Positions 11,463 through 15,844 of a DNA stretch of 64,000 nucleotides are shown here, one piece after another. The stretch covers positions 32,001 to 96,000 of the forward strand of contig JAHPZA010000006.1 in assembly GCA_019058445.1 (NCBI GenBank), written 5' to 3'. The stretch comes from Promethearchaeota archaeon (lineage in GTDB: Archaea; Asgardarchaeota; Lokiarchaeia; Sigyniarchaeales; SOKP01). The position numbers were made by a program, and so were the translations under genes. The notes under the pieces were generated by a model. It ran no database searches. It saw only the letters and a program-made list of their open reading frames with translations, and was not told the origin of the DNA. The first letter of the stretch is position 1. Every line of letters starts with the position of its first letter.

Positions 11463-11669
11463 TTAAGTCAGGACTTCTAATATTTTTGTAAGAATTCGGG
11501 CCTTTCCACCTGTAGATTGGAGTAGAGTCTTTCCACAAACTAAACAGGTTACATCTGTTGCGCTACACCCGAATATTATTTGCTGATTTCCACAATTTAA
11601 GCATTTCACACGTAAGAATCGAGATTTTGGTTGGGGAATTAATTCTTTACCTTTTATATTTTTTGCCAT
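11463..11669 (-). CDS. rps27e: 30S ribosomal protein S27e
   Basis: [14 protein letters not shown]...C..CG..L...TGGKA. Confidence 0.97.
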
Positions 11670-11685
11670 ATTAATCACTCAATTA

Positions 11686-11967
11686 TTATTTTTCTTGTAG
11701 TTCAAGTTTTTTTACTCGATATGATTTACTATATTGTTTTTTACCACATTCCGAGCATTCAAGTAAAGGCGTTGTTCTTTTATTAATTTTCGCGTTTTTA
11801 TGAAAAATTTCTTTAGGAAAAGAGCCATATCCTTTCTTCTTTCTTTCCACTCTCCTCCTTCCATGATTCATCATTCGTTCTTTTCCCTTTTTATAAACAG
11901 AAACATTATGTACTGTGTGGCTTCTGCATGTTGGACAATATCTATTCATCGTTCGTGGAAACTTCAA
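11686..11967 (-). CDS. rpl44e: 50S ribosomal protein L44e (eL42)
   Basis: YCPTC..HT.H.V..YKKGK...LEC.ECGK; adjacent to rps27e. Confidence 0.95.
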   Translation of the reverse strand: MKFPRTMNRYCPTCRSHTVHNVSVYKKGKERMMNHGRRRVERKKKGYGSFPKEIFHKNAKINKRTTPLLECSECGKKQYSKSYRVKKLELQEK

Positions 11968-12155
11968 TTTTCACAGACCTTTCCTTTTATAATTAACATA
12001 AGTAGTTAATTATAAATTTTAAATTTTATGAGTTCTGTTTTCTGAAAGCTAAAAATTAATCTTCAAGATGAAAAATTAGTATGATATGGTTTAATAAAAA
12101 ATAATTTAAACAATTTCTACATAATTTTAATAAATACATAACTAAAGGATGTTTA

Positions 12156-13076
12156 ATGTTTAAGGAGAAATTTAAAGACGGAATTATAAGTGCCAAGCAA
12201 TTCACCAGAGAGGATATTTCGTATATTTTAAAGAAAGGCAAAGAAATGATAAAGAATACAAATTCTAACTTGCTCAGAGGAAAGATTTTAGCGACTTTAT
12301 TTTTTGAACCATCAACCCGTACACGTCTTAGTTTTGAATCTGCGATGTATAGATTAGGAGGAAGTGTTATTGGTTTCCAATCTGGTGATGTATCTTCAAT
12401 TAAAAAAGGGGAGAGTATTGCAGACACTATACGAACTGTAGAAAATTATTGTGATTGTATAGTGATGAGGCATCCGTTAGAAGGTTCTGCCAAATTAGCA
12501 GCAAACTTTGCAAAAATCCCAATAATTAACGCCGGTTCTGGCAGTGGTGAACATCCGACCCAAGGATTGCTTGATTTACTCACTATTTCTGAGGAGTGTG
12601 GAACTTTAGATGGATTGAATATTGGTATTATGGGAGACTTGAAATATGGTAGAACAGTACATTCACTTTCAATTTTATTGTCAAATTATGAAGTCAATCT
12701 CTATTTTATCAGCCCCCCGGAATTGTCAATGAGAAATCGATATAAAGAATTCTTAATTAATGAAAGAGAGGCAAAATTTAAAGAAATAACGCAATATAGA
12801 AAAATTCTGGATGTGTTAGATGTCCTTTATATAACCAGAATTCAAAAAGAAAGGTTTGTCGATCAAGAAGAATATGAACGAGTTAAAGGGATTTATGTTT
12901 TCAATAAAGATGATCTCAAGGAAACAAAAAGCACTTTCAAATTGATGCATCCTTTACCTCGAATTACTGAAATTTCTCCTGATGTCGATGATTCAGAAAA
13001 GGCAATTTACTTTCGGCAGACGAATTATGGGCTTCAACTAAGAAAGGCACTTTTAGCTGAATTACTAAAAGATTAA
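12156..13076 (+). CDS. pyrB: Aspartate carbamoyltransferase catalytic subunit
   Basis: FFEPSTRTRLSFE, HPTQ, GDLKYGRTVHSL, MHPLPR. Confidence 0.97.
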   Translation: MFKEKFKDGIISAKQFTREDISYILKKGKEMIKNTNSNLLRGKILATLFFEPSTRTRLSFESAMYRLGGSVIGFQSGDVSSIKKGESIADTIRTVENYCDCIVMRHPLEGSAKLAANFAKIPIINAGSGSGEHPTQGLLDLLTISEECGTLDGLNIGIMGDLKYGRTVHSLSILLSNYEVNLYFISPPELSMRNRYKEFLINEREAKFKEITQYRKILDVLDVLYITRIQKERFVDQEEYERVKGIYVFNKDDLKETKSTFKLMHPLPRITEISPDVDDSEKAIYFRQTNYGLQLRKALLAELLKD

Positions 13077-15064
13077 TGATTTATCATAAAAGCGTGTAAT
13101 TTGGATTTAAATAGGAAATTCATTATTTCTTTAGTTAAAACCTGATTTGAATCCATCTTACAAGCAAATAGAGATCCACCATCAAGTATTCTTTCGAACT
13201 TTTTGAATAATGAGATTTTATTTTGAAATGATAAGTTCGAGTTGGTTTGAATTATTTGGAAGGGGTTTTGATTCTTAAAACCATATGGAATTTGAAAAGT
13301 TTTAGCACCGTTTAAGATTTTAATATTACAAGGTTGACTTAAATTATAATTAGCGTTTTCAATATCATTTTTTTCTCTAATTAAATCTCTAAGAAAAGAT
13401 AAAACACTCAATGCAAAATTTTGACTTTTTTCAATTTTATCGAGATCTAAACCACAGTGGTGTTTAACCGCTTCATTTAATCCAAAGAAACTAATTGATT
13501 TTAAGGAATCCTCAACCCAGTCATCTAATTTTATTCCTAACACTTCAGTTATAATGAATTTCCAATCCTTCATTTGATTTAATTTTTTCACTACTAAAGT
13601 TTTCTTATAATCGAAAAATTCAAAGACTAAGTTTAATTTTTCCTGTAATAGCCTATAAAACATATCATCATTTTGATTCGCTTTTTGAGCAATAATATTT
13701 AAATTTATTAATATTTTGTCTAATATTATTCTGTTTTCATTATAATCTTGATTTTTAACACGTACAATTGCTGAATTTAATAAATTAGAAGATTTTTGAT
13801 TGTAAAATATAATATTCTTTAAACTGGTCAATGAAATAAATTCATTATAAACGTTATCATTAGATATTGAACGATCATATTTGAAATAATCGAACAAAAT
13901 TAAAGGAGGTATAAACTTTCTTTTGGGATAGTTTTCTGGATTTAAATTTTTAAAAAATACGCTATCGTCTTGAAATAGAGATGAGAAGTCCCTGCTTAGC
14001 TCATCACCATTACTATAATTAAAGTCTAATGTTATATGTGGATTATTGTCTCTAAAAGATTCACTATACCCAGACATTCGCGAAATTATTAAACTATAAA
14101 GTTCTGATTGATCTTCATTTTTAAGAATGTTAAAATAAGGTAGAAATTTTATATTAAATTCACTTAATAAGATATCTTCAGAAAAATAAGGTTGAAACAT
14201 TTTCAAGAAATCTGTAAATTTTAGGATTAATGAAATCAAATCCATCATATTTTTGTATTCTTTTGATAAGTTGGATTTATTTTGATAAAGCATCTCCAAA
14301 ATGCTGTCGGTGGTTAAATGGATGCTTAATGGCCTTAGAGCCCATTGGTTTAAATGAAGAAGTATAACCTCCCCAGATAAATACATATCAGCAAAAGGTT
14401 TTGGTAATAAATTTAAAAGTAAATATTGTTCTGAAACATCTGAACCTAAAAGACGGATAAAATCTATAGGAGTGATGTCCTTTGCATTAAAATATTTCGA
14501 GACTTCATAAGGAGGCGTCCCTAATCGAGTCAATTTATGTCTTACTTCTTCAAGATCATTTTCTAAGAGAATAACATTAATATATTCACGCATTAATGGA
14601 GCAGTTAAATAATCGATATTAGTATTTTTGAGACGTTGTTTAACTTGACTGGCAATATCTTCTGCTAAATGTTTTTCTAATTCACCTTCTTTAATTAAAT
14701 ATTCTTCGATTTTATTGATATTAAATCTCTCTTTAGAATATTTGGAAGTTCTGATCATAATAGGATTTTTACTATCGTTAAGAAGTTGTTCCATATTTAA
14801 AATGAACTTTACTATTTGTTTACCAAAAACTGTGATTGAATATCCATCCTCTTTAGAGGATATCAGAGATAAATTTTTTAAGGGTCTTAAGTGGAATGAA
14901 AAATTTTTAGAATTGGATATTTTACCTAAAACCTCTTTTTGAAGCGTTGAAAATGACACAGGATTGTCATGTTGATTCAATTTATTTAAAATTTCTCGTC
15001 TAATAGGTTGCTGGAGAACTTTCAAATATTTTCCTAAATCTGTTATATTTTTGTCGGAACTCAT
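13073..15064 (-). CDS. ArsR-type wHTH + ATP-cone + degenerate class III ribonucleotide reductase (NrdD)-like domain
   Basis: N-terminal wHTH; IRTS...F...KI...L..E and LTAPLMRE cone motif; NrdD-like TRLG.P.Y, INL..IA and GLNEAV; no C-terminal CxxC or glycyl-radical motif. Confidence 0.8.
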   Translation of the reverse strand: MSSDKNITDLGKYLKVLQQPIRREILNKLNQHDNPVSFSTLQKEVLGKISNSKNFSFHLRPLKNLSLISSKEDGYSITVFGKQIVKFILNMEQLLNDSKNPIMIRTSKYSKERFNINKIEEYLIKEGELEKHLAEDIASQVKQRLKNTNIDYLTAPLMREYINVILLENDLEEVRHKLTRLGTPPYEVSKYFNAKDITPIDFIRLLGSDVSEQYLLLNLLPKPFADMYLSGEVILLHLNQWALRPLSIHLTTDSILEMLYQNKSNLSKEYKNMMDLISLILKFTDFLKMFQPYFSEDILLSEFNIKFLPYFNILKNEDQSELYSLIISRMSGYSESFRDNNPHITLDFNYSNGDELSRDFSSLFQDDSVFFKNLNPENYPKRKFIPPLILFDYFKYDRSISNDNVYNEFISLTSLKNIIFYNQKSSNLLNSAIVRVKNQDYNENRIILDKILINLNIIAQKANQNDDMFYRLLQEKLNLVFEFFDYKKTLVVKKLNQMKDWKFIITEVLGIKLDDWVEDSLKSISFFGLNEAVKHHCGLDLDKIEKSQNFALSVLSFLRDLIREKNDIENANYNLSQPCNIKILNGAKTFQIPYGFKNQNPFQIIQTNSNLSFQNKISLFKKFERILDGGSLFACKMDSNQVLTKEIMNFLFKSKLHAFMINH

Positions 15065-15070
15065 TAATGT

Positions 15071-15174
15071 ATCAAAAACTTCTTTTGATTCTCTTAAATC
15101 TAATTATAAAATAATAGGTTCATCAGAAATATAAAAATTTAGGAAGTTTTGAGTTGCTTGCCATTTTCTGATGA
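15071..15174. promoter_or_regulatory. Inverted repeats upstream of the HTH-NrdD-like gene
   Basis: ATCAAAA-N5-TTTTGAT (15071-15089) and TCATCAGAAA-N35-TTTCTGATGA (15120-15174). Confidence 0.35.
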
Positions 15175-15229
15175 TACACTGGTGATATTGAACAGAATAT
15201 TTCAAATAAAAATTCAAAAACTAGAGAGT

Positions 15230-15844
15230 CTATCTCGCAGAAACGGCTATTCTTTCAATTTCATCTTTCCTTTTTACGGCTCTTGATTCTTGTGAATTTT
15301 TTGATGCTAATGCAAGCTCTTGTGCGAGATTTTCTTCAAAATTATGCAAATTTCCATGAGATCTTGCACCTACAGCCTGAACGAGGTATTTAAGAGCTAA
15401 GTCTACTCTCCTTTGAGGAGCAATATCAACAGCCGAAGCATAAGAAATACCACCCATCGCAATTCGAGTTGTTTCTTCTCTGGGAGCGGTATTGCATATT
15501 GCGTCTACTAAAACTTGAATAGGATTTTCTCTGGTAATATGTTCTATTAATGTAAATGCTGTCTTTATACATTTAATTAATTTATTTTTCTTTCCGGAGT
15601 TGTATGAACTCTTATGTCCTCTTATTTTACTTCCAATAAATCCAGGAGCTAATAATCTATTTAATAACCTTTCTACAATTGAAATGTTTGACTTCCAAAA
15701 CCTCTTATGTTCATGCCGTCCGCAAGATGATGGCACGATAATCGGTCTCAGATTAATATAATTTTCTAAGGTAAAATCTCTTACTTCTATATCTTCAAAA
15801 GACCATTTATTAAATAGCTTGACAGCTAAATTACTCTTACTCAT
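15230..15844 (-). CDS. rps7: 30S ribosomal protein S7 (uS7)
   Basis: KLFNKWS, NPIQVLVDAI.N.APREET, VDIAPQRRVDLAL. Confidence 0.98.
   Translation of the reverse strand: MSKSNLAVKLFNKWSFEDIEVRDFTLENYINLRPIIVPSSCGRHEHKRFWKSNISIVERLLNRLLAPGFIGSKIRGHKSSYNSGKKNKLIKCIKTAFTLIEHITRENPIQVLVDAICNTAPREETTRIAMGGISYASAVDIAPQRRVDLALKYLVQAVGARSHGNLHNFEENLAQELALASKNSQESRAVKRKDEIERIAVSAR

Follow-up and report, generated by a model that had tools for sequence, protein, structure and literature searches.

What becomes of a radical enzyme that has lost its chemistry and carries a DNA-binding domain at its N-terminus? The question is raised by a gene on the minus strand, at positions 13,073 to 15,064 of a stretch of 64,000 nucleotides (nt) that was analyzed as a whole (hereafter, the window) and that comes from the genome of a Promethearchaeota archaeon (Lokiarchaeia; Sigyniarchaeales; GenBank assembly GCA_019058445.1, contig JAHPZA010000006.1, positions 32,001 to 96,000). 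An earlier reading of the window, made from the sequence only, described the product as a winged helix-turn-helix (wHTH) domain, then an ATP-cone and a dead class III (anaerobic) ribonucleotide reductase (RNR), NrdD, and proposed that it was either a nucleotide-sensing DNA-binding regulator, analogous to NrdR, or an inhibitory partner of the active NrdD. The description of the protein as dead and intact holds up in our analysis, in which it also proves conserved; as to its role, we consider it probable that the product is a one-component transcription factor that senses nucleotides, serves nucleotide supply and was built from a class III RNR, a reading that draws on the wHTH, the constrained ATP-cone and a DNA box shared with nrdD. 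The gene consists of the following parts (aa, amino acids):

13073..15064, minus strand: whole gene, wHTH, ATP-cone and dead NrdD barrel, 663 aa and stop codon (open reading frame (ORF) list, Pfam, NCBIfam, AlphaFold2 model, and the ratio of nonsynonymous to synonymous substitution rates, dN/dS)
14801..15025, minus strand: wHTH of the DUF7347/ArsR-like type, aa 14-88 (PF24038, 42.2 bits)
14543..14761, minus strand: ATP-cone of the archaeal NrdD type, aa 102-174 (PF03477, 20.8 bits; position in the structural alignment)
14510..14542, minus strand: cone-to-core linker RHKLTRLGTPP, in which R, T-R, G and P are invariant in three alignments of real and dead NrdDs
13076..14509, minus strand: NrdD-type alpha/beta barrel without the catalytic parts (VIA-align, Foldseek, motif alignments)

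The ORF is real and uninterrupted, starts with ATG, and contains all the peptides quoted in the sequence-only reading (TRLGTPPY, DMYLSGEVILLHL, ILINLNIIA, SISFFGLNEAV, LDGG and the terminal LHAFMINH). The proposed ArsR-like wHTH is over the Pfam cut-off for DUF7347 (42.2 bits against 27.6) and also matches the ArsR/SmtB-type HTH model NF033788 of NCBIfam (E = 5e-5); in basal relatives, this domain is over the cut-off for HTH_5 as well. The ATP-cone assignment stands with respect to position and fold, but the PF03477 score is under the cut-off (20.8 against 25.8 bits); the genome's real NrdD reaches 23.4 bits, and basal wHTH-containing relatives, at 26.2-31.2 bits, exceed the cut-off. In the hairpin of the cone, RT replaces the canonical KR, which is the archaeal NrdD type. 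The Pfam NRDD profile (PF13597) covers aa 404-662, corresponding to profile positions 235-505 of 562 (E = 2.8e-16), and the NrdD equivalog TIGR02487 of NCBIfam yields 51.3 bits against a cut-off of 326.

An AlphaFold2 model built from a 101-sequence alignment (predicted local distance difference test score 85.5, predicted template modeling score 0.77) had only class III RNRs among its best Foldseek matches (E = 2e-19). Superposition on the NrdD of P. copri (8p27_A) with VIA-align gave a Z score of 28.2 and a root mean square deviation of 3.2 Å over 435 residues, with model residues 197-663 aligned to residues 120-675 of the P. copri chain. Residue 100 of the model falls on residue 1 of that chain, so that the cone occupies the position of the NrdD cone. 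At the other end, the C-terminal residue of the protein, 663, aligns to P. copri residue 675, just ahead of the glycyl-radical domain; in the P. copri enzyme, the glycyl radical is Gly711, and Cys171 in barrel strand 1 is the second catalytic cysteine (PMC11226230). With P. copri NrdD as the reference, the homology of the barrel is thus borne out, and the radical domain is absent from the model.

Which parts of the catalytic apparatus were lost can be read from a comparison with a separate NrdD encoded by the same genome (716 aa, contig C1), which is intact and retains all the catalytic motifs, namely, the strand-1 cysteine (RPFCQ), the finger loop SQCCRKF, the NENAN flap, the CxxC..CxxC zinc site and the glycyl-radical motif SRITGYY. 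The alignment confirms that the zinc-binding CxxC pairs, the glycyl-radical motif and the finger-loop cysteine are missing: the protein stops before the CxxC..CxxC site and RITGYY, with nothing encoded beyond the barrel, and the finger-loop segment is deleted or replaced, with no cysteine, both here and in all 26 clade members aligned, which range from Asgard archaea to Bathyarchaeia. The strand-1 cysteine is replaced as well (RPLSI in place of RPFCQ) and, like the NxN flap, has no counterpart in any of the clade members aligned, and the loop-2 motif RGGQ is absent from the protein. No catalytic residue reappears on proper alignment. Kept in common with the real archaeal NrdDs, and invariant, are the cone (the R-T hairpin and the P..RE helix) and the linker, R...TR.G.P; among the NrdD core motifs, the Asn of the INL block and GLNEA persist. 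The four zinc cysteines are still present in many clade members outside Lokiarchaeia, and an RxxG[HT]Y-like tail survives in two, from Jordarchaeia and from family f17. These tail-bearing orthologs also lack both catalytic cysteines, which suggests that catalysis died early and the radical tail was then eroded stepwise. As judged from these alignments, the protein is a catalytically dead NrdD derivative, unable to perform radical chemistry.

The dead form is neither recent nor rare. More than 100 close full-length homologs (47-73% identity, about 660 aa) share the same architecture, the 50%-identity library contains at least 150 clusters, and a scan of species-representative genomes returned at least 591 related loci. 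The protein is encoded in 65 of the 68 genomes of the source's family and in 130 of the 301 genomes of the phylum sample, including several other Asgard families; the carriers include the cultured Promethearchaeum syntrophicum MK-D1 and Lokiarchaeum ossiferum and, outside Asgard, Bathyarchaeia, Culexmicrobium (Culexarchaeia) and one metagenome-assembled genome labeled "Nitrososphaerota." In a maximum likelihood tree of 46 sequences, the proteins with the wHTH form one side of a branch with 100% SH-aLRT support; on this phylogenetic evidence, the wHTH-NrdD clade is monophyletic. Pairwise dN/dS values (Nei-Gojobori) are 0.16-0.37 for the whole gene and, by part, are lowest in the ATP-cone (0.05-0.25), followed by the wHTH (0.1-0.25) and by the barrel, the least constrained part (0.17-0.48); the dead version is, accordingly, under purifying selection. 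Recent truncation is ruled out by the conserved length, the dN/dS values and the tree, and an in-frame TAA found in three relatives is not a disruption because the start is merely shifted to Met9. In public databases, the homologs go by the names "anaerobic ribonucleoside-triphosphate reductase," "winged helix-turn-helix domain-containing protein," "DUF7347 domain-containing protein," or hypothetical; a literature search turned up no paper dealing with DUF7347, with an NrdD fused to an HTH, or with a pyrB regulator of this kind in archaea, and no RNR-derived regulator is described in the literature searched.

Several other members of the RNR family are encoded in the same genome. A class II RNR of the RTPR type (nrdJ; TIGR02505, 425 bits, over the cut-off), with an ATP-cone-like N-terminal start and a leader of about 390 nt, is located at L174:279-2510 (-) = G000:C3:246578-248809 (our own numbering of loci and contigs, G000 being this genome); the failure of a PF02867 search of the genome to find any class I or class II RNR was therefore a false negative. 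Outside the window, at L002:1168-2982 (+) = G000:C3:120444-122255, lies a second dead NrdD paralog of 604 aa, with an ATP-cone and no HTH, in which the strand-1 cysteine is replaced by serine, the finger loop is deleted and the zinc and glycyl-radical tail is gone. This protein, of a type present in about 38 of the 71 family genomes, is 53% identical to the real NrdD and nests beside it within the Lokiarchaeial NrdD clade, which argues for an independent, younger loss of catalysis. NrdR itself, which is rare among archaea (PMC9110341), produced no TIGR00244 match anywhere in the genome. In three Promethearchaeum-type genomes (G210, G089 and G285), the sole match to the NRDD family is the wHTH protein itself; G210 is a complete single contig, 93% by marker count.

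Two further observations concern decayed relatives of NrdD. In a genome of the Promethearchaeum order, locus L151 (G165:C28:151700-154800) encodes a 742-aa protein of the NrdD clade that sits on a long branch and lacks the CC loop, the zinc site and RxxGY; from its sequence features, it may be a third independent dead NrdD. At L003:1100-1935 (+) = G000:C1:156051-156883 in the source genome, a stand-alone wHTH-like ORF of 108 aa, with a CCGACAAA box 77 nt upstream, precedes what is left of an NrdD C-terminus (a decayed fragment, profile positions 417-554, six stop codons), with a radical-SAM gene and a 468-aa intein/LAGLIDADG-like ORF alongside; the wHTH-like ORF and the fragment may be the remnant of another HTH-nrdD unit.

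If the protein is a transcription factor, the beginning of its own gene is an obvious place to look for its site, and the following elements were detected there:

15047..15057, minus strand: box CCGACAAAAAT on codons 3-6 of the gene (core CCGACAAAA), conserved at the DNA level
15128..15141, minus strand: predicted B recognition element/TATA box of the gene's own promoter, TAAATTTTTATATT, at an inferred position, conserved in 20 of 20 family loci
15171..15188, minus strand: imperfect inverted repeat ATATC-N5-(G/C)ATAT, which is present in 20 of 20 family loci and lies some 35 bp upstream of the TATA box

The same 11-mer, CCGACAAAAAT, recurs 58 nt ahead of the ATG of nrdD, for which the 14-mer TAAATTTTTATATT is also the predicted promoter. 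At the start of the gene, 55 of 65 loci retain the CCGACAAAA core at the DNA level, in the pattern NCC-GAC-AAA-AA, where the first base varies and the synonymous positions are fixed. Six of these 55 gene starts have a stop codon right behind the box and an ATG downstream; in genus g2 (L008, L011, L014, L067, L069, L074 and L080), the ancestral start region reads ATT-GAT-TCC-GAC-AAA-AAA-TAA, so that translation must begin at an ATG nine codons further on, and the box is retained as noncoding sequence. Persistence of the box where the reading frame is broken, together with the fixed synonymous sites, indicates that it is a nucleic-acid element rather than the product of a constraint on the peptide. 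The nrdD leader carries the CCGACAAAA box in 21 of 21 family genomes; in genus g4, this leader contains two copies separated by 10 nt, an arrangement more in keeping with a DNA site than with an RNA site. The possibility of a structured RNA at the box was also considered and rejected: RNAalifold finds no conserved fold, and the sequences on either side are at least as unpaired as the box itself. For both the gene and nrdD, the near-identical TATA regions predict a start site that would place the box roughly 50 nt downstream, a spacing that is itself inferred.

The core extends to other genes of DNA synthesis and replication. CGACAAA, for which the background is roughly 0.013 per 400 nt, occurs at conserved positions before nrdJ in 7 of 27 genomes and before orc1/cdc6 in 11 of 23; in the source genome, the CCGACAAAA box is at -272 of nrdJ and at -199 of orc1/cdc6 (L175:322-1524 (-) = G000:C7:74721-75923), the latter being the position of the core in the 11 relatives. 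One more copy lies 182 nt ahead of a tfb gene (G000:C7:29957) in this genome, and 4 of the roughly 20 intergenic copies of the box in the genome are located at RNR-family genes. The inverted repeat, ATATC-N5-GATAT (ATATCACC-N3-ATATTATC), has a single exact copy in the genome, which is also the top hit of its position weight matrix (PWM); with no convincing second PWM site and a family-wide frequency only about 1.7 times that of the control, it was discarded as a regulon motif.

The second line of linkage leads to pyrimidine synthesis. The genes on the two sides of the regulator gene are:

12156..13076, plus strand: pyrB, aspartate carbamoyltransferase catalytic chain, convergent with the gene (PF02729 and PF00185)
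15230..15844, minus strand: rps7, the last gene of the rpoA-rpl30e-nusA-rps12-rps7 cluster, just upstream (ORF list; context only)

As the sequence-only reading had it, the two stop codons overlap (13073-13075 on the minus strand for the regulator and 13074-13076 on the plus strand for pyrB, with 2 nt in common) and no pyrI is adjacent, the pyrI gene being about 1.19 Mb away on the same contig. That reading treated the pyrB neighbor as a curiosity; the overlap is real, and the association was underrated: nothing else at the locus is as deeply conserved. The first 20 family loci retrieved all have pyrB convergent with the gene, and in wider samples pyrB is found within 3 kb of the gene in 73 of 80 loci, with 5 of the 7 exceptions at contig ends. 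The arrangement itself varies: Asgard families f15 and f17 and the Bathyarchaeia have a convergent pyrB with a divergent pyrI beyond it, and in the Promethearchaeum clade, pyrB is followed by the regulator gene in the same direction, at a distance of about 18 nt in MK-D1 (L119:2059-5157, NZ_CP042905.2 ~3570292-3573390), where the pair would form a bicistronic operon. In family f11, the gap between the two is 4 nt, and a real nrdD adjoins as well. The adjacency is missing in Jordarchaeia and in family f23, and at one Bathyarchaeial locus a class II RNR gene takes the place of pyrB. The other neighbors differ between lineages (ribosomal protein genes here, V-ATPase genes elsewhere), so that the conserved pair consists of the regulator and pyrB; the rps7-side neighbor is also present at the genus g4 loci. 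In most loci outside Lokiarchaeia, pyrI adjoins.

Some features of the pyrB upstream regions deserve mention in their own right. In the non-Loki lineages, pyrB and pyrI diverge from a spacer of 70-170 bp instead of forming the usual pyrBI operon (L026:8392-9949, L028:6654-8120, L121, L122, L128, and others); in family f15, this spacer contains a ACAACCATA(T/A)TA box, repeated twice. In MK-D1, the sequence some 75 nt upstream of pyrB includes a perfect palindrome of 14 bp, ATTAATCGATTAAT, which also occurs in the single close relative that was examined. When the intergenic regions between pyrB and pyrI in distant lineages were searched for motifs, only lineage-specific repeats were returned, namely, the family f15 repeat and the MK-D1 palindrome. 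In the window itself (11463-12155), pyrB is divergent from rpl44e-rps27e across a 188-bp spacer with two strongly conserved AT-rich blocks, which include, just upstream of pyrB, the direct repeat TTAATAAAA, 35 bp apart.

How would such a protein work? NrdD is an obligate dimer, and hence the dead barrel probably serves as a dimer scaffold. ATP-cones sense ATP/dATP, as in NrdR; by analogy with NrdR and with NrdD itself, the cone of the protein probably reads the ATP/dATP state and changes the oligomeric state or the DNA affinity, and the N-terminal ArsR-type winged helix probably binds DNA. In the Lokiarchaeial family of the source, the likely targets would be the gene itself and nrdD, via the shared CCGACAAAA box, and perhaps nrdJ and orc1/cdc6. 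Across archaea, where the constant partner is pyrB/pyrI, the general job would be to match nucleotide supply, that is, pyrimidine synthesis and ribonucleotide reduction, to the nucleotide pool. It is the combination of a wHTH and an ATP-cone that are both under selection, a dead, dimer-forming body, a box shared with nrdD, and synteny with pyrB that points to a nucleotide-sensing transcription factor; DNA binding, ligand binding, the site bound and the sign of regulation are, at this stage, predictions from sequence.

Comparison with characterized systems puts this reading in perspective. With NrdD (P. copri 8P27/8P28, T4 1H78, T. maritima 4COI), the protein shares a homologous ATP-cone, linker and 10-stranded barrel, and with the genome's own NrdD also the unusual archaeal cone and linker motifs; unlike NrdD, it has an added N-terminal wHTH and lacks the strand-1 cysteine, the finger-loop cysteine, the NxN flap, the zinc ribbon and the glycyl-radical motif. 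B. subtilis PurR combines a winged helix with an inactive phosphoribosyltransferase fold that senses phosphoribosyl pyrophosphate, and PyrR is another enzyme-derived regulator of a nucleotide pathway. As in these two, a pathway enzyme fold with catalysis lost or sidelined would do the ligand sensing in a regulator of nucleotide synthesis, and, as in PurR, the winged helix is N-terminal; the folds and the ligands, however, are unrelated, and PurR and PyrR are bacterial. The protein is analogous in its logic to NrdR, and the evidence fits an independent origin: NrdR, the bacterial RNR-specific repressor that consists of a zinc ribbon and an ATP-cone (PMC9110341), binds boxes that also overlap or follow the start site, but the protein described here has a wHTH in place of the zinc-ribbon DNA-binding domain, a 480-aa dead enzyme body attached, and pyrB, not nrd genes, as its constant neighbor. 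The box is also different from that of NrdR, with CCGACAAAA at the protein's own gene start, at nrdD (21/21) and at nrdJ (7/27); the protein is one candidate for the factor that binds it.

Several findings weigh against the transcription factor reading. The cone is divergent (RT for KR) and scores under the Pfam cut-off, and by sequence, using either a single sequence or a 12-member profile, it matched no cone among solved structures. The CCGACAAAA box was not seen upstream of pyrB (0/20), pyrI or the second dead paralog, which means that the two lines of linkage share no single target; nor was it seen in the nrdD leaders of other Asgard families, and it shows no genome-wide enrichment. Exact and PWM scans of the genome gave no second strong copy of the ATATC-N5-GATAT box. 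Finally, the CCGACAAAA box lacks symmetry and is situated downstream of the predicted start sites, a position that is unusual for archaeal repressors. With a box that is confined to the source's family, asymmetric, not enriched and downstream of start sites, another factor could be the one that binds.

This last possibility leads to the alternative that survives best, although we regard it as unlikely: the protein would belong to a DNA-synthesis regulon without being its controller, some other factor binding the CCGACAAAA box and co-expressing nrdD, nrdJ, orc1/cdc6 and the gene, and the protein itself might be, for example, a nucleotide-dependent chromatin or replication accessory, or a nucleotide buffer. 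The occurrence of the box before orc1/cdc6 and, here, tfb suggests a broader replication-linked set, the asymmetry and downstream position of the box also speak for it, and in genus g4 the box is retained at nrdD and orc1 but is missing from the regulator gene itself. Yet, autoregulated transcription factors commonly carry their own site, 4 of the roughly 20 intergenic copies in this genome are at RNR-family genes, and constraint on the protein is strongest in the wHTH and the ATP-cone, as expected of a sensor-effector pair.

Distinctly less probable is a role in protein-protein interaction, in which the protein would serve PyrB as a non-catalytic regulatory subunit or inhibit NrdD as its partner in a heterodimer. 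The deep and tight synteny with pyrB, operons included, would be compatible with the former, and the dimeric nature of NrdD and the continued selection on the barrel with the latter. However, this genome still has a gene for PyrI, which is the normal regulatory chain and whose gene is a neighbor in most non-Loki loci, and the conserved wHTH would be left unexplained. As for the partner of active NrdD suggested in the sequence-only reading, the persistence of the protein in the complete genome G210, as well as in G089 and G285, which have no other gene of the NRDD family, excludes this as a general role. Highly improbable, in our view, is a non-radical enzymatic activity on nucleotides, kept or gained in the old active-site cavity with the wHTH as a mere tether: the conserved barrel (dN/dS 0.17-0.48) and the persisting Asn of the INL block and GLNEA speak for it, but the NxN flap, loop 2, both cysteines and the radical domain have been lost, no other part is as weakly constrained as the barrel, and the nearly invariant columns of the 101-sequence alignment show no evident new cluster of invariant polar residues.

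The reading of the protein as a nucleotide-sensing transcription factor is thus the one that we prefer. Compared with the sequence-only reading, the new points are the depth of the pyrB synteny, the spread beyond Asgard, the persistence in genomes without NrdD, the way in which the tail decayed stepwise, the selection profile, the second, independent dead paralog and the orc1/cdc6 sites. Because databases mostly label the family as a working anaerobic reductase, metabolic reconstructions are affected, and Promethearchaeum-type genomes would be wrongly credited with a class III RNR. For enzyme evolution, the family would be a clear case of the passage from enzyme to sensor, in which the catalytic cysteines were lost first and the radical tail then decayed stepwise. 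The presence of the protein in two cultured Asgard archaea makes the hypothesis directly testable. A more ambitious version, which we consider rather unlikely, casts the protein as a master nucleotide-pool sensor that responds to dATP/ATP, binds CGACAAAA boxes and couples nrdD/nrdJ, pyrB and orc1/cdc6; if true, eukaryotes' closest prokaryotic relatives would thereby possess a primitive regulon resembling that of S phase. More generally, gene-level control of deoxynucleotide and pyrimidine synthesis in archaea is largely unknown, and this family provides a concrete candidate for a regulator.

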